A stretch of DNA of 34,968 nt from an uncultured archaeon (GCA_964568285.1 CAZMPT010000001.1:1-34968); one strand, 5' to 3'. Shown: positions 3,752-32,745, counted from the first letter of the stretch. Numbers and translations: made by a program. The notes: generated from the letters alone by a model not told the origin.

Positions 3752-4603
3752 ATGAATTGGAAAAAAGAATGGAATAAATTTTCTGAAGGTGCAATTAAAG
3801 ATATGAAGAAGCACTCTGATAATACTCATGAAGAGCGTGAGTGGATGTGTTATGTTTATGAAGAAGATGGTATTTATCATTTAGGAAATGTAACTTATGG
3901 AGATGAATCTCGCATTGAGGTGAATCCTACTGCTAAAACTAACGAAGATGCATTAGTTAATGGACTAAGGCATAAAAAATGGACGATTCACGGACATCCA
4001 TTAAAAGATGGTAAGATTTATACAGGCCGACAATACTTTAGTTCTACCGATGTAATTGATGAGTTCATTAAATGTCGAGATAATGATGAATATGTGGTGC
4101 AATTCGTAGTGTATCCTCATCAACAAGTAGATGATAATACAGGACAAAGAGTGTTACATAATCGTGTCAGGGTCTTAGTATTCCCTGATTCGGCTACCGT
4201 AGTAGAAGCCATGAGAAAAGCCTCACCTAATTGTGACCCCTATTCCATTACCAGAGAATCTGGACAAAATCATTCCGTTCCAGACGGTAATGGTGGAACT
4301 ACTTTGGCTAATGATGCTGGGGCGGATTGGTTCGCTTTCCAAGAAGTATTAGGAGATATGGGATGGATGGGTATTGTAGATATTGAAGGGCCGGAATATG
4401 GAGCCGAGTCTTATAGTGCCGAAGATGATATGTTATCTCGCAGAAATATTGTTACGGCTATTGGTATGGCCTCAATTGCCGCCGTTATTTATGGTGTAGC
4501 CCGATATAATAATAAAGTTAGTGATGCTATTTCTAAGTTTGGTGTAGAAACCGTAGAAGGCAGCACTGAAGAATTAGAAGGATTCCATTGGTGGAAGAAA
4601 TAA
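3752..4603 (+). CDS. Possible JAB/MPN (JAMM) metalloprotease-like protein with a C-terminal TM helix
   Basis: Contains EEREW...WTIHGHP-x14-SSTD, which resembles the JAMM motif E...HxH...SxxD but with a longer spacer. The C-terminal hydrophobic helix is IVTAIGMASIAAVIYGV. The SD AGGTGAT lies 3 nt before the ATG and contains the upstream stop. Confidence 0.45.
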   Translation: MNWKKEWNKFSEGAIKDMKKHSDNTHEEREWMCYVYEEDGIYHLGNVTYGDESRIEVNPTAKTNEDALVNGLRHKKWTIHGHPLKDGKIYTGRQYFSSTDVIDEFIKCRDNDEYVVQFVVYPHQQVDDNTGQRVLHNRVRVLVFPDSATVVEAMRKASPNCDPYSITRESGQNHSVPDGNGGTTLANDAGADWFAFQEVLGDMGWMGIVDIEGPEYGAESYSAEDDMLSRRNIVTAIGMASIAAVIYGVARYNNKVSDAISKFGVETVEGSTEELEGFHWWKK

Positions 4604-8077: not shown

Positions 8078-8890
8078 TTAACCACCCTCTGCCATCATAG
8101 CCCCTACATCATGTCGGTAGTCAAAATAGTTGTTATTAGATAATGCTTGTTGGTATCTGGAAATTTGTGGTTCATCAAATGCCGCAATAAATAAATCATA
8201 TTGTTCTCTTTGACGAATATTAGAAGAGTTTTTCATGTCAGGGGTAATCGGCCATGTAGAAACGATAGGGTCAAACCAAACCGGAGTTCCATCACTTCGG
8301 TATCCAAAATTGGCTACATTGGCTACATCTCTAATAATTACATTAGCGTGGTGGAATAAATCTTCAGTCAAACTACGATAGGCGTGTTGTTCTTCAGGCA
8401 CTTTCTTTTCATAAATGTGAGGATTCCACCCCGACCTATTTGGATACTTCATCATGCCGCCCCAATTATTGTAAATAGTATTTGGAACACGCTCCATGAC
8501 CCACCATGCTAATCTGTTTCCTGAAGAAAATTCTTTTAGGGCTGAAATAAGGTCTGCTTTATTCCACCCATAATCATAATAAGAATCTCTAACTACATCT
8601 CTCATTTCTTCGCTAACTTCTCCATAACCGAAATCATAAATGTGTGGTAAGTGAGGGTTAATTGGATTCCCAACTAAACGAGCCATTAAATTTGCTTGTA
8701 GTTCATTAGTGGCAATTTTTCTGGAACGCATACTTCTCAAATCACCAAAAGTATTTCGGTAAGGTAGCACTTCTCCGACCACTAAAGGTCTAATCTGAAC
8801 TACTTTAACGACCTTTTCAGGGTCATCTTCCAGTTCAAAGACGAACCCAGATTCCCCATATCCGATGAGCGAACCTAGTGATGGTAGCAT
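8078..8890 (-). CDS. Protein-kinase-like fold protein
   Basis: Motifs: Gly-loop IGYGESGFVFE, VVKVV (beta3 Lys), catalytic-loop-like HHANVIIRDVANVANFG, and DFG-like WFDP. The start was moved to the in-frame ATG at 8890 (Met3), exactly 20 nt from the promoter motif at 8910. Confidence 0.5.
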   Translation of the reverse strand: MLPSLGSLIGYGESGFVFELEDDPEKVVKVVQIRPLVVGEVLPYRNTFGDLRSMRSRKIATNELQANLMARLVGNPINPHLPHIYDFGYGEVSEEMRDVVRDSYYDYGWNKADLISALKEFSSGNRLAWWVMERVPNTIYNNWGGMMKYPNRSGWNPHIYEKKVPEEQHAYRSLTEDLFHHANVIIRDVANVANFGYRSDGTPVWFDPIVSTWPITPDMKNSSNIRQREQYDLFIAAFDEPQISRYQQALSNNNYFDYRHDVGAMMAEGG

Positions 8891-8909
8891 ATCCATATTT
8901 TCACTTCGC

Positions 8910-9515: not shown

Positions 9516-9534
9516 AGTATTTCATAGGGAGATG

Positions 9535-9544
9535 ACCTATTTAA
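9535..9544 (-). promoter_or_regulatory. Promoter element, exact TTAAATAGGT
   Basis: 20 nt to ATG 9515 (leaderless geometry). Confidence 0.75.
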
Positions 9545-10711: not shown

Positions 10712-12936
10712 GCATTCTGCCCTAATAAAGAAGATTGTTTGGCCCCATTAGAGCGGTTTCTATTAACCCTAATAGATGATTTAATATATTCAGGGATATA
10801 ATTTTGCAGTGGTTCGTTTCCGATTCCCTTACTATAATGAAACCAAAATTGAGGGTCTATGATATAATTATGTCCTGTGTCTTCGGCAGACCTCACAACT
10901 CTACCTAACATTTGCGTTAATTGATTAGCGGTTTGTAATTTATACCAAGAAGGATTTTCTTTCATTTTAATCGCAGTTCTTACATCTCCCATCGCCGGAA
11001 ATGGAATTTTTACAATGATACAAAAATCTACTGACTTTCCATCGTATCCTTGGTTAGCATAAGTAGAAATCAAAACCTTGTTGCTTTGAGAATTATCAAA
11101 ATTAGTAAATACTTCGTTGCGGGACTTGGCATTTTTATTATGTTGCACTAATCTTTGTTCTGCACTTTTAGAAATATAAGCAATGGCTTCTACTAATTGT
11201 TTCTCTAGTGAGTCAGTATAGGGGAGAATAAGTCCTTTCTTTCGAGGATACAAATTCATAATATCTACGATAGCCTCTGCGGTCTTCATCATTTCTTCGT
11301 TTGATTTAGAAGAATACGACATCTTTCCTCCTACCTTACTACTATAAATGGGTCGGTTACTAAGTGGGAAACTAGAATAGTTAATCTGGAGAAAAGCCGT
11401 ATCTTCTTTGTTTAGTCCTATTTCATCACAGAAAATGTCAATATTTCCGATAGTTCCTGACATAAATACCCTTACCTTACCTGTATTTAGCATTAATTCT
11501 TCTGAATAATCTTTGATGTCTAATGGCTTAAAACTAATATATTCAGGTGCAGTATCATCATTTGCTTGCCAAAGACAGTTTTTCCAATCCGTAGAAAGTA
11601 GTTGTGTTACTGATTTAATTTTACTTATGGTATTATACACATATTTGAGTTCATCTTCTTCGTAATCTTTCTTTCGTATCTTGCGTGATACCATATTACT
11701 AAGTGCTTCAAAATACGCAGCCAAAACAACTGCTCCTTTTCTTCGGAAATCATCAGTAGATTCTACTCGCACAGATGGAACTTTAGGAAATCCCCATCCA
11801 TTGTTAGTTGGTGTCCATGATTCTAATTTTTTACTGCGTTCTTTTTGAAGGATAGGTCTATCTTTTTCAGCAGATTCTAAAACTTGTTGATGAGTCGGAA
11901 GTTGTAGCAGCCTTTCTATTACTTTTACAGAAAAATCTAATGAATAAAAGCCAGTCATAGCCGATGCAAGTTGATGCGCCTCATCTACAATAAGGAAATC
12001 TCGTTGTTTTACCATCTTTGATGATTGATTCATCGCCATTAGATAACTCATATTTGAGATAAAGAATCGAGAATTTTGGGCGTTAGTTAAAGATTCATAA
12101 TATTCACACAAAGATGTTGGGTCCACACCCCAATTGTAGCCATTCTCTGTTTTTGGAACTTTATAGGGACAACTAAATCCTCTGATTAAACTACAAGGAG
12201 CCATACTTGCGGTGCAACCGCCGGTTTGCCAATTAAAACCGCCAATAGTGGCTCTATCAACTGCTTCTTGCGCTCGTTGTTTATTTAAACATCCGGGTTC
12301 TAAGTCTAAACTGCATTCGTAATTTCCTTTTCCCATAACACTTCTCATAAAAGGCATTTCTTTCATATATTGTTCTTGTAGCCCTTTCAAATGAGTTACA
12401 ATATAGGATTCCGCATTAAAAATCTTGGGAAGAACCATAGCCATAGCCGATTTTCCAGAACCAGTAGGACATTCTATGACGATATTTTTGTATCCTTCTT
12501 GGATTAAATCTACTGCATGAGGAATAACTTGCGCTTGTTCTGGTCTCGGAGTTGGAAAACGGGTGCCTTCAAAGTATTCTTGACATTCCCAAAGATTTTC
12601 ATCTTCTTGGTTAATAACTACCTGTTTGAATCCCAATGATTGGGGCTTACCAATGACAGCATTACCTATTTTTCCCAATTGTGAGTCATCAAACTCTACG
12701 GCTTCAATTATTTTATCTTCTTCTTCCTCTATCTCTGAAGTAACTAAGACTCCATCTACCGCCATTTTTAACTCCATGATATTACAAAATTTGGTGAGGT
12801 TTTCTATCTTGAGTCCACCTATTTTCATAGTCCCAGTATAACATTTACGAGATTTATTCCATTTGAGGTCGTAAGTTCCTCCTAATACTTCACGATAAGG
12901 CATGGTATTACCCCGAACATCTACGCTAACGAACAT
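10708..12936 (-). CDS. XPD/Rad3 (DinG)-family superfamily-2 helicase with an Fe-S cluster domain
   Basis: Walker A is ECPTGSGKS, the DEAH box is VDEAHQL, and motif VI is QMLGRVVRS. A Cys cluster lies between them (GNYEC..PGC..GGCTASMAPC..FSCPY..SLCEY). There is a roughly 130-aa N-terminal extension of unknown function. The start was set to Met7 (12936), exactly 20 nt from the exact motif at 12956. The track ATG at 12954 is only 2 nt from the TATA box. Confidence 0.85.
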   Translation of the reverse strand: MFVSVDVRGNTMPYREVLGGTYDLKWNKSRKCYTGTMKIGGLKIENLTKFCNIMELKMAVDGVLVTSEIEEEEDKIIEAVEFDDSQLGKIGNAVIGKPQSLGFKQVVINQEDENLWECQEYFEGTRFPTPRPEQAQVIPHAVDLIQEGYKNIVIECPTGSGKSAMAMVLPKIFNAESYIVTHLKGLQEQYMKEMPFMRSVMGKGNYECSLDLEPGCLNKQRAQEAVDRATIGGFNWQTGGCTASMAPCSLIRGFSCPYKVPKTENGYNWGVDPTSLCEYYESLTNAQNSRFFISNMSYLMAMNQSSKMVKQRDFLIVDEAHQLASAMTGFYSLDFSVKVIERLLQLPTHQQVLESAEKDRPILQKERSKKLESWTPTNNGWGFPKVPSVRVESTDDFRRKGAVVLAAYFEALSNMVSRKIRKKDYEEDELKYVYNTISKIKSVTQLLSTDWKNCLWQANDDTAPEYISFKPLDIKDYSEELMLNTGKVRVFMSGTIGNIDIFCDEIGLNKEDTAFLQINYSSFPLSNRPIYSSKVGGKMSYSSKSNEEMMKTAEAIVDIMNLYPRKKGLILPYTDSLEKQLVEAIAYISKSAEQRLVQHNKNAKSRNEVFTNFDNSQSNKVLISTYANQGYDGKSVDFCIIVKIPFPAMGDVRTAIKMKENPSWYKLQTANQLTQMLGRVVRSAEDTGHNYIIDPQFWFHYSKGIGNEPLQNYIPEYIKSSIRVNRNRSNGAKQSSLLGQNA

Positions 12937-12955
12937 ATATTTACTATCATCCATT

Positions 12956-12965
12956 ACCTATTTAA
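12956..12965 (-). promoter_or_regulatory. Promoter element, exact TTAAATAGGT
   Basis: 20 nt to the in-frame ATG 12936 of the helicase. Confidence 0.7.
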
Positions 12966-13002: not shown

Positions 13003-13779
13003 ATGCAGGTATTTTGGGGAGTTCGTAATATTCCACGATTTGATAAAAAAACGGATGGTGGAGACGATGGATGGTTCAGTAATGATAGCACCAATGCTGC
13101 TGGAGTCGCAGACGGCGTAGGTTCGTGGAGAAAAAAGGGTATTAAAAGTGGTAATTTTTCTCGTTCCATGATGTCTAAGACCAATAATCGTATTGAACAA
13201 GGTATGAATCCTTATGATGCTTTACAAAGTGCATTTTTAGATTGGGAAGATAAAACAGGTTATGGCTCTACTACCTTTTGTGTAGCCCAGATGCTTGAAG
13301 ATATTTTGTATGTAGCCCAATTAGGCGATAGTTGTATTTTAGTTCAAAGAAATGGAAGGGTCGTTTATCAATCAAATGAACAAGAACACTTGTTTAATGT
13401 CCCCTATCAATTAGGTTCAGGTAATGAATCATTAGAGGATTCTTGGAGGTATCAAATTTCCCTTTTGCCCGGAGATACCATCATTATTGCTTCCGATGGA
13501 TTGTTTAATAATTTATATCGTAGTAAAATTCTCTCTATTATCAATAGTTATCCTATGGAATCGGAAAATCCCAATGCTTTATCGCAACAAATTGCAGACC
13601 AATTAGCCGGAGAAGCATACGACCAATCTATGTCTAATAAATATTGGTCACCATTTGCCCAACGCTCTTACGAAATGGGAATTACAGAAGCCTTTGATGT
13701 GGCTCAATTAGGTGGAAAGCCTGATGATATTACAGTGGTGGTAGGGCGTGTTTTATCTAAAGATGTTTGGAGAGATTAA
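13003..13779 (+). CDS. PP2C-family Ser/Thr phosphatase, PTC7/SpoIIE-like
   Basis: Motifs: GVADGVGSW, GSTTFCVA, AQLGDSC, EQEHLFNVPYQLG, IIASDGLFNN, GGKPDDITVVV. Leaderless, 21 nt from the plus-oriented TATA at 12973. Confidence 0.9.
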   Translation: MQVFWGVRNIPRFDKKTDGGDDGWFSNDSTNAAGVADGVGSWRKKGIKSGNFSRSMMSKTNNRIEQGMNPYDALQSAFLDWEDKTGYGSTTFCVAQMLEDILYVAQLGDSCILVQRNGRVVYQSNEQEHLFNVPYQLGSGNESLEDSWRYQISLLPGDTIIIASDGLFNNLYRSKILSIINSYPMESENPNALSQQIADQLAGEAYDQSMSNKYWSPFAQRSYEMGITEAFDVAQLGGKPDDITVVVGRVLSKDVWRD

Positions 13780-15666: not shown

Positions 15667-15676
15667 ACCTATTTAA
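15667..15676 (-). promoter_or_regulatory. Promoter element, exact TTAAATAGGT
   Basis: 54 nt to ATG 15613. The leader carries GGGAG/GAGATGAG. Confidence 0.65.
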
Positions 15677-18106: not shown

Positions 18107-18116
18107 ACCTATTTAA
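18107..18116 (-). promoter_or_regulatory. Promoter element, exact TTAAATAGGT
   Basis: 49 nt to ATG 18058. The leader carries GGGAGGAG. Confidence 0.7.
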
Positions 18117-21071: not shown

Positions 21072-21081
21072 ACCTATTTCA
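21072..21081 (-). promoter_or_regulatory. Promoter element, variant TGAAATAGGT
   Basis: 20 nt to ATG 21052. Contains the TGA stop of 21079..21405. Confidence 0.65.
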
Positions 21082-21406: not shown

Positions 21407-22363
21407 TCAAGGCTCTGTTGGGCTATCGGGGTCCAATCCCAAAGTTTGGCAGATTTCTTTGTATCGGTTTCGGATAGTAACCTCGGTCACACCAGCAGCC
21501 ATGGCTACATCTCTTTGTGTGCGTGTCACGCCCTTAATACGAGTAGCCAAATATACTGCGGCAGCAGCCAAACCAGTTGGCCCTCTTCCCGTTCCCAATG
21601 CTGTAACTGATTCAAAACTCAATATACGAGTGGCTAATGATTCAGTCTGTGCATCCAATTGTAGTTGAGATGCAAAACGAGGCACATATTCTGTGGGTGG
21701 TGTTGGAAGAATACGAATACCCAAATCCTTCATAACACGCTTGTAAGTGCGCCCAATTTCTTTACGGCCTGTGCGAGAATGCTGTCCAATTTCATCAAGG
21801 GTGCGACTCATACGATTCAATCTGCAAGCCGCATGGATGCAAGCCGCAACTACTCCCTCTATGGAACGACCACGAACCAACTTGCGTTCTACGGCTCGCT
21901 TGTAAATTCTTGCGGCATTTTCTCTAACAGAACGAGGCAAAGCCATTTGTGAACCCAAACGGTCAAGTTCATTCAGAGCAGTAACCAAATTACGCTCTTT
22001 AGAATCACGAATACGGGTGCGCTGATGCTGACGGCGCAAACGGTTATACTTCCGCCTTTGAGAAGCAGACAAGGTTCCACCAGCCCCATCTTTGTAAGCA
22101 GGAGCCATATCAGTAGTCAAACCACCGTCATGGTATAAGTCTGACTTGGGCATACCCCATCGTTCTCCTTCCATGCCTGACCCATCAGCAAATACTCTAT
22201 TATCCTTGCCCAAATCTACTGTCCATTCGGGCATCACCAATCCACATTCTTTACAATGTGGTTCATCGGCTTCAAAATCAATACTTGTTGATTGGCATTC
22301 AGGACAAATATAGGCATCATAATGGAAGTCATCTGCGACCTCTTGTTTCTTTTCATCGTTCAT
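21407..22363 (-). CDS. tfb: Transcription initiation factor TFIIB homolog (TFB)
   Basis: An N-terminal zinc ribbon (CPECQS...CKECG), a B-reader/linker, and two cyclin-like repeats (SIEGVVAACIHAACRL... and GPTGLAAAAVYLATRI...). The start was set to ATG 22363, with the SD GAGGGTGA 4 nt upstream and the exact promoter motif 33 nt upstream. The track start at 22396 is a TTG lying inside the TATA box. Confidence 0.92.
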   Translation of the reverse strand: MNDEKKQEVADDFHYDAYICPECQSTSIDFEADEPHCKECGLVMPEWTVDLGKDNRVFADGSGMEGERWGMPKSDLYHDGGLTTDMAPAYKDGAGGTLSASQRRKYNRLRRQHQRTRIRDSKERNLVTALNELDRLGSQMALPRSVRENAARIYKRAVERKLVRGRSIEGVVAACIHAACRLNRMSRTLDEIGQHSRTGRKEIGRTYKRVMKDLGIRILPTPPTEYVPRFASQLQLDAQTESLATRILSFESVTALGTGRGPTGLAAAAVYLATRIKGVTRTQRDVAMAAGVTEVTIRNRYKEICQTLGLDPDSPTEP

Positions 22364-22395
22364 AGTTTCACCCTCTGTGCGTTCATAGTGCGACA

Positions 22396-22405
22396 ACCTA
22401 TTTAA
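22396..22405 (-). promoter_or_regulatory. Promoter element, exact TTAAATAGGT (tfb promoter)
   Basis: 33 nt to ATG 22363, with GAGGGTGA in the leader. Contains the TAG stop of 22398..22733. Confidence 0.7.
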
Positions 22406-22733
22406 GCATTTCGTTATCTTTAAGTAGGTTCTTGTCTAAAGCAGTTAGGAAGCCCCACCCCAAATTCTTTGGTTTCTTGAGCCATCTTAATTTCCATTGT
22501 TCAGATTCAGCCTCCAACAAAATATATCCACTTTCTTTTTCTTCTCTTTTAGTTATTACGAACTTGACATCTCCAATTTTACTTTTGTAGGGGACCTTCT
22601 TCCAATTGTTCTTTTTCTTGTCCCATGCTTTCCATGTCAATTCAGTTTTGTCAAACAACCTGAAAATATCAATTCTTTTTACCTTCTTTCCTACTTCAAA
22701 GGTATCTTCAACTGTTTTCTTTGCTTTAGCCAT
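22398..22733 (-). CDS. Lys-rich basic protein (111 aa), possible nucleic-acid binding
   Basis: Starts MAKAKKTVEDTF... The ATG at 22733 overlaps the upstream stop by 8 nt. The track start at 22790 would overlap by 65 nt. Its TAG stop lies inside the TFB TATA box. Confidence 0.5.
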   Translation of the reverse strand: MAKAKKTVEDTFEVGKKVKRIDIFRLFDKTELTWKAWDKKKNNWKKVPYKSKIGDVKFVITKREEKESGYILLEAESEQWKLRWLKKPKNLGWGFLTALDKNLLKDNEMLK

Positions 22734-23156: not shown

Positions 23157-23696
23157 CTAATTCACCCTTATTTTTTCTGCTACTATCTTTCCAATAGGTA
23201 AATCACTATTGAGTTCATAGGTGCGAGTCGGAATATCGGTGTTTCTTCCACCTTCTTGTTTTACAATCCCTCGTGCCACAAATAATCTCATATGTCTGGC
23301 TACGGAACCTACACCCATCCTGAAGGCGAATCTTTCTGTGAAAGCCCCAATTTGTTTGGCCGATAGTTTCCCACGATGTTTCAGAATGCGAAGTAATGTA
23401 TATTGAATATGGTTTCGCTTTCCTCTTCTTATCTGATGGTAGCACTCTAAAGAGCAAAATTCTCGGTTGGACTCGTGAAGTTCATAGCGGATATGATATT
23501 CATCACCGCAATAATCACAAGAATCTGGAATAGGTGGTTTTCCATAAGGACCTCGTTTGTATCCATTATTTTTGTAAATTCGGCAATAGGTGGAACAGTA
23601 ATTGGTTTCAATACGGTTGTATTTGGCTCCGCTTTGGATGATACCCCTGCCACAATAGCAGTTCGGCAAACTATTCTGTTGATACTTTTCTTCCAT
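23157..23696 (-). CDS. Tandem TRASH/FCS-type zinc-finger plus winged-helix DNA-binding protein (paralog of 28643..29188)
   Basis: Contains CYCG...YCSTYC and CDYCGDEY...FCSLEC, then LRILKHRGKLSAKQI...wHTH. The start was set to ATG 23696, with the SD GGGGTG 5 nt upstream and the motif 32 nt upstream. The track ATG at 23720 is 8 nt from the TATA. Confidence 0.65.
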   Translation of the reverse strand: MEEKYQQNSLPNCYCGRGIIQSGAKYNRIETNYCSTYCRIYKNNGYKRGPYGKPPIPDSCDYCGDEYHIRYELHESNREFCSLECYHQIRRGKRNHIQYTLLRILKHRGKLSAKQIGAFTERFAFRMGVGSVARHMRLFVARGIVKQEGGRNTDIPTRTYELNSDLPIGKIVAEKIRVN

Positions 23697-23727
23697 TCTT
23701 ACACCCCTTGATAAGACCATTGTGCGA

Positions 23728-24786: not shown

Positions 24787-24816
24787 GGCTCTCACCTAAC
24801 AAACCATAGGGCGATA

Positions 24817-24826
24817 ACCTATTTAA
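24817..24826 (-). promoter_or_regulatory. Promoter element, exact TTAAATAGGT
   Basis: 31 nt to ATG 24786, with AGGTGA in the leader. Confidence 0.7.
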
Positions 24827-26645: not shown

Positions 26646-26655
26646 ACCTATTTAA
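26646..26655 (-). promoter_or_regulatory. Promoter element, exact TTAAATAGGT
   Basis: 36 nt to ATG 26610, with AGGAGG in the leader. Confidence 0.7.
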
Positions 26656-28621: not shown

Positions 28622-28640
28622 AAATAGTGATTATATCACT

Positions 28641-28650
28641 ACCTATTTAA
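28641..28650 (-). promoter_or_regulatory. Promoter element, exact TTAAATAGGT
   Basis: 20 nt to ATG 28621. Contains the TAG stop of 28643..29188. Confidence 0.75.
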
Positions 28651-29188: not shown

Positions 29189-29208
29189 GAGATATGTATA
29201 TCTCTATG

Positions 29209-29218
29209 ACCTATTTAA
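29209..29218 (-). promoter_or_regulatory. Promoter element, exact TTAAATAGGT
   Basis: 21 nt to ATG 29188. Confidence 0.75.
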
Positions 29219-30021: not shown

Positions 30022-30843
30022 ATGGGTATAGAAGATGTCGCCAAGTTCGCCAAGTTTGGAAGGGGTGCTGGCGATGTAGGCACCGCTTTTATGAAAACCC
30101 AAAAAGGATTGGCGATGGTTGATGCTGCGGTTACGGCAGGGAAGGTTGGTGGTGATGCCGCATCTATGGCTAAATATGCATCTGAACAGGCTGCTATCAT
30201 CAATAAGGGTGTTTTAGAACGAATGGGTAGATTTACCAAACAGTTAGATAAGGCTTCATCCAATAAATTGATGGGAATGGGTAAAACCCTTAGCGAACAA
30301 GTTGGCACTTATTCGGCTCAATTGGCAAAAAAATTAGGTGACCCATCGGCGGCGGGTGAATTATCTAAGTTAATCAATCCCAAAGTAACCAGTATTTACA
30401 AGAAATCTATGAAGATGTCTAAGAAAAACTTGATAGGTAAGACTGATGAGGGTGCAGCACTAACTGGTAGAGCAGCAGATGATGTGGCAGAAGCCAATGC
30501 CACTTTTGGCTCTAGAATATTGAATGGTATTTGGCCTCCCGGAAGAGGTTCTGTGATTCTTGCTGGTATGGGTATCTTGATTTGGGCTGGACCTTTGGAT
30601 GCATTAGCAGGTCTAACTACTACCCTTGAACGATTCAATTTCCTCCCTGAAGGGACAACTAATGGTTTAATTGCATTTTGGGGTAAATTAAGAGGATTTA
30701 TTACGGCTGTATTGTGGGCTGCTATTCTCTTAGGGACATTCTGGGTGATGAATATGGTATTTGGTGCTGCAAAAACAGCAAAAGGTGTTGTAGATGCTGT
30801 TACCGACAATATAGTTCCAGATGCAGAGCCATCTGGAGCGTGA
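30022..30843 (+). CDS. Basic membrane protein (273 aa; helical N-domain plus 2-3 C-terminal TM helices)
   Basis: TM segments are SVILAGMGILIWAGPL and FITAVLWAAILLGTFWVMNMVFGAA. Leaderless, 21 nt after TTGAAATAGT (29992-30001). Confidence 0.7.
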   Translation: MGIEDVAKFAKFGRGAGDVGTAFMKTQKGLAMVDAAVTAGKVGGDAASMAKYASEQAAIINKGVLERMGRFTKQLDKASSNKLMGMGKTLSEQVGTYSAQLAKKLGDPSAAGELSKLINPKVTSIYKKSMKMSKKNLIGKTDEGAALTGRAADDVAEANATFGSRILNGIWPPGRGSVILAGMGILIWAGPLDALAGLTTTLERFNFLPEGTTNGLIAFWGKLRGFITAVLWAAILLGTFWVMNMVFGAAKTAKGVVDAVTDNIVPDAEPSGA

Positions 30844-31984
30844 TAACTTGTCAGATAGTTGGGACTTTGTAATTGCTCCAGAGGATTTGGAAACTACTAA
30901 TACTGCCGGTGCATTATTACAAATGCTCCCTGATGGCAGCATTGCCAATAAGTCTGGTCAATGGATTTCAACAAGAGGTTATGAGGTAGAAGATAATTGG
31001 TGCAGAACTGGTTTGGCAGCCAAGTTGGTGCATATTGATGATAAAGGAAAATCAAAGAATGTTGTAGTTACTGGAGATTCTGGAGAATATGATTTAACTG
31101 CTCCCGAAGGCAATAATAAGTTTAGAATATTTGTGAAAACAATTTCTGGGACTGATGAGGGTGATGAACCATGGATTGCTGGGGCTTGGGATTCAGATGC
31201 TTTATGTTCGGCACAAGATTTTACTGATATGGTCTGCCAAGAAAATGTGATTGGAGAATTCAGAGGTCGTTCTGATAGAGTGACTGTGAATATCAGACAA
31301 CTTAACATTCCTTATTTTGCAGCATTGGAAGCAAAAGTTCTTAGTGATTCAGAGAATCCGGAGCGTCTATTACGCAATCCAGAGTTGTTATATCAAAAAA
31401 CTAGGGAGTTAATAGACCCGAATATGGTTATGGCCCTACGAAGAAGTAAAACATGGGTTACAGACGGAAATGGTGATGGCACATGGGATTTTAATATACC
31501 AGACGATTGGCCTCCCGGCCCCATATTTATTACAGTAGAGTATGGATATGACGCAGCCAGTGAAAAAAGCACAGGCGAACTTGGGATGGAGATGTTAGAG
31601 AGGGCTGCAATACTAGTTACTATTGGGTTGGAAATAGCACTCGCAATTCTTTGTTGGCCCTGTGGTGTAGTTTATTTCTTGGCTGTTGATGTGTGGGAAA
31701 TTGCCCAACTGTTTGCTCAAGTTCCAATGGGGGGACAAAACAAATATGGTTGCACATTCCCCCCTATCACCCACGCAACTCCTCTGTTGGCCGCTTATCA
31801 GATAGACTATAAGGGTTCGGAAGCAAAAATCTATGAAGATATGGATGCTGGGGCGAAACAGTTTATGGCACAGTTGGTAAAAGATGAAGAAGTTAGGAAA
31901 CAAAATATGTTGCTATCTTTAGGAGTCGTTGGAGGTGCAACTTTATTAGTTGCAGGTTTTTGGTTAGCATTCGGAGGGGAATAA
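30821..31984 (+). CDS. Membrane protein (large N-terminal domain, C-terminal TM helices)
   Basis: TM segments are AAILVTIGLEIALAILCWPCGVVYFLAV and LLSLGVVGGATLLVAGFWLAF. The ATG at 30821 lacks an SD. The alternative is TTG 30848, 3 nt after GGAGCGTGAT. Confidence 0.65.
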   Translation: MQSHLERDNLSDSWDFVIAPEDLETTNTAGALLQMLPDGSIANKSGQWISTRGYEVEDNWCRTGLAAKLVHIDDKGKSKNVVVTGDSGEYDLTAPEGNNKFRIFVKTISGTDEGDEPWIAGAWDSDALCSAQDFTDMVCQENVIGEFRGRSDRVTVNIRQLNIPYFAALEAKVLSDSENPERLLRNPELLYQKTRELIDPNMVMALRRSKTWVTDGNGDGTWDFNIPDDWPPGPIFITVEYGYDAASEKSTGELGMEMLERAAILVTIGLEIALAILCWPCGVVYFLAVDVWEIAQLFAQVPMGGQNKYGCTFPPITHATPLLAAYQIDYKGSEAKIYEDMDAGAKQFMAQLVKDEEVRKQNMLLSLGVVGGATLLVAGFWLAFGGE

Positions 31985-31986
31985 AG

Positions 31987-32745
31987 ATGCCAGCAGAGAA
32001 TGAAAACTTAGAAGAACAACGACAAGAGAACTTTTTGAAAGCCTATAATGATGGAAAAAGCCATGTCGCTGGTGAAGCATATTGGGATGAACCTGATTTT
32101 ACTATTTTTGATGTATTAGATATGGAGGATGAACATGAATATCCATGGGTTTGTGACACATTTCACCAATATGCGATAGGCACTAGTCAGAAAAATGCAG
32201 ATGAGAATGATTTGAGATTATGGAAGAACGATATTATTTTTGGTTTTCAGGCTAGTGATACCAGTGGATGGTGGAGTGCGGATTTGGGAACATCAATGCA
32301 TTATAGCAGCGACCACAAAGTTCGTATTGATATTTATCACACAGATTCTAAGGGAAGGGTGGATAAAGTAATATCAAATTATGATTTAATGGGTGGGGAT
32401 GCAGATAATGGTATTAGATACCTTCCTTTTTATCCATCTAAAATAGGGAAATATACTGTCTGGATTAATAGAGTCCTATCAGCAGGAAGTTGTGGTGTTC
32501 CCATGGAAGGAACTAACAATTTTTGGAAATACGAGATAGAAATAAAACCTCCCGCAGAAGGTGATGAGATACCTGATGGTATTGATGTGGATTATGATGC
32601 ACTTAGGGAAGAATTTGAACAGTATCAATTAAATATGGCTTTAATGGGTGGGGAAACAGTATCTCCGATTACCCCTCTGGCACTATTAGGAACTGGTATA
32701 GTAGTGTCTTTAATAGCATATGGTATGTTTTCTTTATTCAAATAA
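31987..32745 (+). CDS. C-terminally anchored membrane protein (252 aa)
   Basis: The ATG at 31987 lies 6 nt after GGAGGGG. The track start at 31960 is a TTG/GTG-type extension. The C-terminal TM helix is LALLGTGIVVSLIAYGMFSLF. Confidence 0.65.
   Translation: MPAENENLEEQRQENFLKAYNDGKSHVAGEAYWDEPDFTIFDVLDMEDEHEYPWVCDTFHQYAIGTSQKNADENDLRLWKNDIIFGFQASDTSGWWSADLGTSMHYSSDHKVRIDIYHTDSKGRVDKVISNYDLMGGDADNGIRYLPFYPSKIGKYTVWINRVLSAGSCGVPMEGTNNFWKYEIEIKPPAEGDEIPDGIDVDYDALREEFEQYQLNMALMGGETVSPITPLALLGTGIVVSLIAYGMFSLFK

Follow-up and report, generated by a model that had tools for sequence, protein, structure and literature searches.

A conserved TFB gene under a shared TATA-type promoter in a virus-like marine archaeal element

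The TFB gene and its product

The window analysed here is a stretch of 34,968 nucleotides of DNA from an uncultured archaeon, and its minus strand carries, at 22363..21407, an ATG-initiated ORF of 318 amino acids. Searches of Pfam, PDB and NCBIfam, together with an AlphaFold2 model, identify this CDS (21407..22363) as encoding a full-length TFB/TFIIB homologue, hereafter the element TFB. An alternative TTG start, which gives 329 amino acids, was considered and set aside, as the longer ORF would overlap the promoter.

The original prediction of a complete TFIIB architecture at this place, with a zinc ribbon, a linker and two cyclin folds, is borne out, the coding strand being the minus strand for the gene and all its parts. 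The zinc ribbon (residues 20-41, CPEC...CKEC; 22241..22306) scores 25.9 bits against Pfam Zn_Ribbon_TF, slightly below the 29-bit cut-off, and its cysteines C20, C23, C37 and C40 are invariant in an alignment of 46 relatives. The B-reader and B-linker region, delimited by alignments, spans residues 48-118 (22010..22222), and the TFIIB repeat of Pfam is found twice in the protein (E=9e-42). The first cyclin repeat (residues 121-215, Pfam 123-212; 21719..22003) contains the RGR loop with G165 and R166, as placed by alignment with Pyrococcus TFB (PDB 1D3U) and human TFIIB. The second repeat (residues 223-308; 21440..21697), defined by Pfam, PDB and family alignments, contains the helix-turn-helix (HTH) AGVTEVTIRNRYKE with V295 and R298.

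The archaeal TFB model of NCBIfam, NF001658, aligns with the element TFB over positions 11-309/312 at 345 bits, below the trusted cut-off of 384. In the PDB search the Pyrococcus TFB core (1D3U) matches with E=5e-53 and about 50% identity, and human TFIIB matches the core of the element TFB with E=1e-39. The AlphaFold2 model, built from the 46-sequence alignment, has a mean pLDDT of 80.8 and the expected helices; values exceed 90 in both cyclin repeats, lie near 80 in the ribbon and drop to their minimum (56-76) in the reader/linker region. Its best structural matches in BFVD are giant-virus TFIIB homologues and a rudivirus TFB. Collectively, these matches confirm at the level of sequence that the ORF encodes a real full-length TFB. 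With cellular TFB/TFIIB (Pyrococcus, PDB 1D3U and 1AIS) it shares the zinc ribbon, the reader/linker, the two cyclin repeats, the HTH helix and the RGR loop, whereas it differs from them in its virus-like carrier, in its reader and linker motifs, in scoring below the NCBIfam cut-off and in its distance from TFBs beyond its own family, none of which exceeds 49% identity to it.

The divergent motifs of the reader/linker are GKDNRVF, ERWGMPK and HDGGLTT, against the canonical GPEWRAF, RTGAP and HDKGLST, so that the canonical B-reader helix GPEWRxF is absent from the window TFB. The GKDNRVF helix, in which the arginine and the phenylalanine are kept and the tryptophan is lost, is common to the window and to relatives L001, L003 and L007; L015 reads GKDTNTY and has lost the tryptophan too. 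A sub-lineage formed by L012 and L014 retains GPDW(R/S), RTGMP and HDKGLTT. The Pyrococcus helix GPEWRAF corresponds to G41-F47, and substitutions at most of the positions of the Pyrococcus B-reader helix, except A46 and A49, strongly reduce transcription (PMC6212726). Given this sensitivity and the lost tryptophan, the element TFB might initiate poorly or differently.

We considered whether the protein could be a decoy that binds TBP-DNA, the polymerase or both and, since its altered B-reader would make it a poor initiator, switches off host transcription instead of driving that of the element. This would fit one broad sub-lineage, in which the tryptophan is lost and the flanking motifs are altered, and it would fit the functional sensitivity of the Pyrococcus helix. 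Yet the arginine and phenylalanine of the helix, the zinc ribbon and the linker are still conserved, and a decoy would block the element's own promoters as it would any TATA promoter. Furthermore, since L012 and L014 of the same family keep a canonical B-reader (GPDWR, RTGMP, HDKGLTT), the ancestral role was probably ordinary initiation, and we regard the decoy as clearly unlikely.

Marine assemblies of Tara, JGI and ENA contain abundant homologues of the element TFB, with identities between 93% and 49%. Ranked by identity among the proteins shared with the compared relatives, the TFB comes first or close to first. It is 75% identical in L003, where the other shared proteins range from 29 to 76% and the top three include the Cas4-like nuclease (76%) and a 102-aa protein (75%); it is 56% identical in L007, against 26-43% for the other shared proteins, and 51-55% identical in L012, L014 and L015, against 23-49%. 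The dN/dS of the TFB relative to relatives is 0.08-0.10, a sign of strong purifying selection, and clustering at 50% identity collapses the whole family to one representative, with the next TFBs at most 49% identical. This conservation, together with the dN/dS and the clustering, argues for an old core gene under strong constraint and against a recent capture.

The GC content of the gene had been taken as a hint of acquisition from a higher-GC cellular genome. The higher GC itself is real: at 46.5% the TFB gene has the highest value among genes of at least 150 aa (mean 38.9 +/- 3.0). The excess is, however, confined to codon positions 1 and 2, the GC3 of 34.8% being within the range of the other genes (30.3 +/- 3.3), and it reflects an Arg/Ala/Gly-rich conserved protein. 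In relatives with loci of 33-42% GC, the TFB is always 4-8 points higher, with a GC3 below the locus average. Because the excess sits in positions 1 and 2 and recurs in all relatives, it is no sign of recent acquisition, and this part of the claim finds no support.

Promoters of the window and how they might be read

An exact TTAAATAGGT, a TATA-type promoter at 22396..22405 on the minus strand, lies 32 nt before the ATG of the TFB gene, and the TAG stop of the upstream 111-aa gene falls inside it (ATG CTT AAA TAG). With the transcription start estimated from the TATA spacing, the transcript would have a 5' leader of about 12 nt that contains a Shine-Dalgarno-like (SD) GGGTGA, read from the sequence at 22368..22373 on the same strand. 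An 8-codon ATG frame that begins 9 nt after the promoter was discarded as a uORF, being upstream of the expected transcription start.

The motif is shared with many neighbouring genes, in line with the original prediction: the window contains nine exact copies, all on the minus strand. Besides the TFB copy, these lie 19 nt before the ATG of a 199-aa AAA_18 kinase-like gene (9535..9544), before the XPD-like helicase gene with its likely leaderless ATG at 12936 (12956..12965), before the Cas4-like nuclease gene (15667..15676), and before three SD-led genes, which encode a 148-aa protein (18107..18116), a SWIM zinc-finger protein (24817..24826) and a 210-aa protein (26646..26655). The remaining two precede leaderless ATGs by 19 nt (28641..28650) and 20 nt (29209..29218). 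Furthermore, a one-mismatch copy, TGAAATAGGT (21072..21081, minus strand), stands 19 nt ahead of the ATG that opens the Holliday-junction-resolvase-like gene, which is the second gene downstream of TFB.

Allowing at most one mismatch, we found 14 copies in the window against 4.9 expected from shuffled sequence. Of these 14 copies, 13 fall within -25..+60 of a same-strand gene start, and so do all nine of the exact ones; the chance expectation is 6.5%. Looser matching places such a site at 18 of the 53 genes of the window, and about 18-20 promoters can be supported, short of the at least 24 genes first proposed. In about a dozen cases the gene-opening ATG lies exactly 19-20 nt after the 10-mer; if these transcripts are leaderless, this spacing would put the 8-bp TATA at about -30..-23, the usual archaeal geometry. 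A second class, TFB included, has about 30-53 nt to the ATG and an SD of the GGAGG/GGTGA type. Both of the leader classes that had been described are therefore present, and they have the same core motif.

Next we considered the information content of these promoters. At 18 sites, the information in the TATA 8-mer amounts to about 12 bits, a value inflated by the picking of sites for motif similarity, and the nine upstream positions, where a BRE would be, carry about 2.1 bits over the same number of sites. In mapped promoters of M. jannaschii the corresponding values are 6.09 bits for the TATA and 2.63 bits for the BRE (PMC2699501). By comparison with M. jannaschii, which may not resemble the host, the TATA of the element is unusually uniform and the BRE position ordinary. 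Of the ultra-uniform TATA with an ATG[C/G] flank that had been predicted, the uniformity of the TATA stands; the flank is present in 6 of the 18 promoters and does not hold as a general feature.

Across the family, a promoter core TTA[A/T][A/G]TAGGT is retained, also upstream of TFB. The TFB gene is preceded by TTAAATAGGT in L001, L003 and L007 and by the variants TTATATAGGT and TTAAGTAGGT in L012-L015. The GGT after the TATA is conserved between lineages whose TFBs are only 51-56% identical, and the TAGGT tail is the sole candidate for a family-specific contact. Contacts of TFB downstream of the TATA have been described as non-sequence-specific (PMC2699501).

The residues that would read these promoters are canonical. 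The BRE-reading helix AGVTEVTIRNRYKE aligns with human AGVADVTIRQSYR, which pairs V295 with V283 and R298 with R286 of the human factor, two residues known to contact the BRE; G165 and R166 of the RGR loop correspond to human G153 and R154. The Pyrococcus TFB has the same residues as the element TFB in the recognition helix and the RGR loop, and V295/R298 and G165/R166 are invariant across the family in the 46-sequence alignment. With Pyrococcus and human factors as references, which may not stand for the host's own, the comparison of these DNA-reading residues thus gives identity at both sites and no sign of a private reading.

These data bear directly on the proposal that the TFB and its promoters form an orthogonal pair, in which host TFB reads TTAAATAGGT promoters poorly and the element TFB redirects host TBP and polymerase, perhaps switching between the leaderless and SD-led classes. 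A TATA 8-mer of about 12 bits (18 sites, inflated) against 6.09 in M. jannaschii (PMC2699501), and the conserved GGT in lineages with TFBs 51-56% identical, would be expected of such a pair. So would the finding that the type of B-reader tracks the promoter: the group without the tryptophan (window, L001, L003, L007 and L015) mostly uses TTAAATAGGT, GKDNRVF going with this motif, whereas the L012/L014 group, with GPDWR, uses TTATATAGGT. As only two lineages are involved, however, shared descent explains this correlation equally well.

Several observations point the other way: the recognition helix and RGR loop are canonical, the BRE position carries about 2.1 bits with the flank in 6 of 18 promoters, the spacing from TATA to ATG is canonical, and one core motif serves both leader classes. 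In addition, the promoter of the TFB gene is the same exact TTAAATAGGT as those that its product would control, so that host factors must read it unless the TFB is packaged in a particle. The sequence hence does not support the private pair that the original prediction had put forward, and we consider such a pair rather unlikely.

Two further searches around the promoters were abandoned. Inverted repeats of at least 5 bp, as candidate operator palindromes between TATA and start, occur in 5 of 16 promoters and in 21% of random 36-mers, and as a set they do not exceed chance. A 15-mer, AATGSTTAAATAGGT, gave among the IMG/VR matches listed only single, apparently chance occurrences; among the loci taken from this search, L054 alone is marginally similar to the window (27-28% identity to two small proteins).

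The element family and its carrier

The window matches a 34.8-kb JGI contig (3300008954, Ga0115650_1003148), and most of its ORFs are without a Pfam or PHROG match. Among the larger ones, those of 1015, 710/1060, 446, 387 and 283 aa gave no Pfam, PHROG or PDB sequence match. The genes that can be assigned encode an XPD/DinG-like helicase (PHROG E=7e-80), a Cas4-like nuclease, a Holliday-junction-resolvase-like nuclease, a PriS-like primase, a PolX-type nucleotidyltransferase, an AAA_18 kinase, a PP2C phosphatase, a SWIM finger protein and a ferredoxin-thioredoxin-reductase subunit. An MCM-like helicase lies directly to the left of the window. Tracing of a host through the ferredoxin-thioredoxin-reductase gene (FeThRed_B) was dropped, as it led to a bacterial contig with sigma-54 and GGDEF genes.

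A syntenic block of TFB, the Holliday-junction-resolvase-like nuclease, the Cas4-like nuclease, PP2C, the XPD-like helicase and the kinase is present in every relative context inspected, from 93% to 51% identity. The contigs of this family group around lengths of 146-191 kb, and three of them, of 150, 160 and 166 kb, are in IMG/VR. The IMG/VR accessions of the family are IMGVR_UViG_3300025132_000021, _3300046163_000066 and _3300027845_000169. The relatives encode an ATP-dependent ligase and two C5 methyltransferases. Furthermore, the 160-kb IMG/VR contig encodes a large subunit DP2 of DNA polymerase D (PolD) of 1188 aa (Pfam catalytic 1e-104, central 3e-86, N-terminal 8e-83) and the 166-kb contig a further DP2 that is 71% identical, both contigs being those of relatives of the window. 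In a table of polymerase distribution from 2020, PolD is given for archaea only (PMC7281927), and according to a 2024 paper tailed viruses encode PolA, PolB or PolC and archaeal viruses family B polymerases (PMC11348598).

We then weighed whether the window could be ordinary chromosome of an unbinned small-genome archaeon, the TFB being a cellular one with normal promoters. Contigs of up to 191 kb and the typically cellular replication proteins of the relatives (PolD DP2, MCM-like, PriS-like, ligase) would suit this reading. Against it, neither tRNA nor Rfam RNA was found in the 35-kb window, most ORFs are without a Pfam or PHROG match, and no ribosomal or central-metabolism family was matched in the partial set that was scanned, made up of larger ORFs of the window and flanking genes from relatives. 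Independent contigs cluster at 146-191 kb and three of the family are classed as viral in IMG/VR. Moreover, scans of 185,579 GTDB species-representative genomes, one with the TFB protein alone and a second with clade-specific peptides, gave no match. Given the contig sizes, the IMG/VR members, the missing species-genome match and the missing RNA genes, an ordinary chromosome is very unlikely, and we leave it hardly any weight. The mobile-element setting first proposed for the TFB is consistent with all of this: the window is non-chromosomal and virus-like.

The carrier is a candidate virus in the strict sense, on the basis of the IMG/VR membership and of weak fibre-like matches: two large proteins of relatives match PHROG tail-fibre families (E=1.7e-6 and 2.7e-4), and a strongly conserved 319-aa neighbour in relatives is predicted to fold as a C1q/TNF-like beta-sandwich, of the fibre-tip kind, with weak structural matches. 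When this 319-aa protein was used for fold searches, PDB gave no match at E<=0.001 and BFVD a single borderline one. Inspection of roughly 80 kb revealed no capsid, portal or terminase gene.

Among known viruses, magroviruses (Magrovirales / Aoguangviridae) have genomes of 90-100 kb and a family B DNA polymerase replisome (PMC10768690). That description sets them apart from the present family, whose contigs are 146-191 kb and whose relatives carry PolD DP2; no PolB was seen in the regions that were read. The contig size and the PolD of the relatives argue against an overlap of the two. With the giant eukaryotic viruses (Nucleocytoviricota), for which TFIIB is a marker gene, the virus-like element shares the possession of its own TFIIB-like factor on a large DNA, and they provide the top structural matches in BFVD. 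Nucleocytoviricota, however, encode their own RNA polymerase and their TFIIBs are 13-24% identical to the element TFB, which is clearly of the archaeal type, and the element has archaeal promoters and Shine-Dalgarno sites.

Tentatively, and as something short of the probable case, the contigs could represent an undescribed global family of viruses of marine archaea, about 150-190 kb in size, with a near-complete information-processing set of PolD, MCM-like, PriS-like, ligase and TFB genes, in which the slowest-evolving TFB, with its rewired B-reader, would be a virus-specific factor controlling host RNA polymerase. To our knowledge, the largest archaeal virus genome known is about 144 kb, and such a family would be larger. 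If the carriers were confirmed as viruses, their PolD would also bear on the origins of replication enzymes.

A possible role of the element TFB in transcription

From the domain architecture, the conservation, the promoter layout and the non-chromosomal context, all of which are observed, we infer that the gene most likely encodes a working initiation factor that reinforces the transcription of the element. Because one and the same promoter precedes the TFB gene, its orthologues and the other genes, the first reading of it must fall to host TBP and TFB, unless the protein is delivered by a particle. Positive feedback is therefore the simplest model, the element TFB adding to or replacing host TFB. 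After entry, host TBP, TFB and RNA polymerase would read the strong, canonically spaced TATA promoters, that of the TFB gene included. The element TFB would then accumulate and join host TBP and polymerase on the same promoters, and element transcription would be raised and sustained, possibly with host TFB limiting or being shut off. If the element TFB prefers the promoters of the element, the cause would be affinity or the altered B-reader and not a private promoter code.

To this reading as a whole, a working TFB/TFIIB-family factor encoded by an old, vertically inherited core gene and acting by positive feedback, we give about even chances. Weighing against this reading are the score below the NCBIfam trusted cut-off, the lost tryptophan of the B-reader and the lack of an identified capsid or terminase.

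We also considered that the protein might serve something other than transcription initiation, such as replication or partition. A TFIIB homologue is found in all thaumarchaeal integrative-conjugative elements, usually in an apparent operon with ParB (PMC6563490), an arrangement that has been read as a hint of such a role, and the TFB gene of the present element sits amid replication and repair genes. No ParB-like neighbour was found around the window TFB, however, and all the parts needed for initiation are retained under strong constraint, which makes a role of this kind decidedly improbable.

TFB genes on viruses have been recorded before. One is annotated on the genome map of magrovirus YSH_150918 (Aoguangviridae) (PMC10768690), and TFB/TFIIB homologues are annotated in rudiviruses (bioRxiv 10.1101/2020.01.16.907410). 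The rudiviruses ARV3 and SSRV1, the Sulfolobales viruses YNP1 and YNP2 and Halorubrum tailed viruses also carry a homologue of the initiation factor; in a phage collection the element TFB is 23-29% identical to the TFBs of ARV3, YNP1/2 and the Halorubrum tailed viruses. The cited literature contains no functional tests of these virus and mobile-element TFBs. A 2017 review of archaeal viral transcription factors discusses no viral TFB and assumes the use of host factors (PMC5569661).

The present case differs from these known TFBs in that the element is much larger and has the TFB as its most conserved core gene. An analogy is offered by the sigma factors of phages (T4 gp55, SPO1 gp28) and by the multiple TFB/TBP paralogues of haloarchaea, which serve in the manner of alternative sigma factors, as extra initiation factors that redirect the polymerase. 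The promoters of those systems are distinct from the host default, whereas the element shows no such separate code, and its TFB gene shares the promoter of the other genes.

The element TFB joins the viral and mobile TFB genes already annotated, among which it stands out by how conserved and abundant it is and by the clean promoter set around it. Archaeal viruses have been thought to depend wholly on host TBP, TFB and RNA polymerase, and here an element family that is abundant throughout the ocean has a TFB as its best-conserved gene, amid highly uniform promoters. The sequences of this family provide a clean set for in vitro work on a possible bias of the host polymerase by a viral TFB.

TFB sub-lineages, promoters and gene starts

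We found two sub-lineages among the TFBs of the elements (window 22010-22222, minus strand, and the related marine loci L001, L003, L007, L012, L014 and L015). In sub-lineage 1 the tryptophan of the B-reader is lost and the segment reads GKDNRVF or GKDTNTY, together with ERWG/DRWG and HDGGL; sub-lineage 2 is canonical, with GPDWR, RTGMP and HDKGL. The promoter variants TTAAATAGGT and TTATATAGGT go with this split, with the exception of L015, whose TFB lacks the B-reader tryptophan, yet whose promoters are TTAAGTAGGT and TTATATAGGT.

The promoter of the window TFB gene coincides with the end of the 111-aa gene that lies upstream, whose last codons read ATG CTT AAA TAG (M, L, K, stop; 22396-22407, minus strand): the stop codon falls within the TATA box, and the ‘ATGC’ flank is coding sequence of the 111-aa gene. 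Three genes, those of the helicase, the 272-aa protein and the primase-like protein, have their first in-frame start too near the TATA motif. Each has a downstream ATG exactly 19 nt past the 10-mer promoter motif (window 12936, 8890 and 33627, respectively, minus strand), and because this distance fits the leaderless pattern, these ATGs are probably the true starts. Furthermore, palindromes lie between TATA and start at some window promoters (29199-29214, 28623-28639, 24804-24820 and 9522-9538, minus strand), with 7-bp arms in two and ATAGG-N7-CCTAT in two; as a set they are no more common than expected by chance (5 of 16 promoters versus 21% of random 36-mers).

PolD, fibre-like proteins and genome size in related elements

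Relatives of the element encode DP2, the large subunit of the archaeal family D DNA polymerase, as a 1188-aa protein on 160- and 166-kb contigs of IMG/VR, the two copies sharing 71% identity. This evidence comes from contigs of relatives rather than from the window's own strain. DP2 is located at L143:15909-19475 (plus strand), L145:10001-13567 and L144:9980-13570, and the 1188-aa protein matches the Pfam catalytic (1e-104), central (3e-86) and N-terminal (8e-83) domains of DP2. PolD is not among the virus-encoded polymerases reviewed in PMC7281927 and PMC11348598.

The region adjoining DP2 (L144:14190-16475, L145:15242-19369 and L145:19405-20364, all minus strand) encodes two large proteins and a 319-aa protein. 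Both large proteins match tail-fibre families of PHROG (E=1.7e-6 and 2.7e-4). The 319-aa protein is strongly conserved, with 102 homologues, and its predicted model consists of a C1q/TNF-like beta-sandwich and a disordered basic N-terminus, with weak structural matches to fibre tips, lectins and HHIV-2 capsid proteins.

Family contigs reach 146-191 kb in independent assemblies (those behind L003-L007, L141, L142, P0178, P0353 and P0451), and in at least six of them a contig end lies 10-30 kb away from the TFB. These sizes and positions suggest a family genome of about 160 kb or more and, close to the TFB block, either a terminus or a region that breaks assemblies.

Other genes of the window

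A PP2C phosphatase gene (13003-13779, plus strand; Pfam 1.6e-10) lies about 4 kb from the 272-aa ORF (8078-8896, minus strand), and the two could be a kinase/phosphatase pair targeting the host. The 272-aa ORF has no Pfam or NCBIfam match; protein-kinase-like motifs, GESGFVFE...VVKVV and IIRDVANVANFG, were noted by eye.

Two genes upstream of the TFB, a 187-aa protein (23157-23720, minus strand) may be a specific transcription regulator. Its gene is preceded by a separate TTAAATAGGG promoter and has a start of the SD-led type. The protein, which has no family match, contains several CxxC pairs and, on visual inspection, a winged-helix-like segment at its C-terminus.

A homologue of the ferredoxin-thioredoxin-reductase catalytic subunit (PF02943; 25002-25343, minus strand) has a 98% identical copy on a 165.8-kb contig. 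This gene is uninformative about the host, because the one cellular homologue inspected (52% identity) sits on a bacterial contig.

Further ORFs are located at 248-2407, 3752-4603 and 30022-32745 (plus strand). The ORF that opens the window corresponds to the C-terminal portion of a 1060-aa protein with a PPGPPGPP stretch; this protein and those of 283, 273, 387 and 252 aa have no family match. The latter four carry a hydrophobic C-terminal segment that is probably membrane-spanning, and the 283-aa protein shows 49-58% identity across the element family, with an HGHP...SSTD motif.
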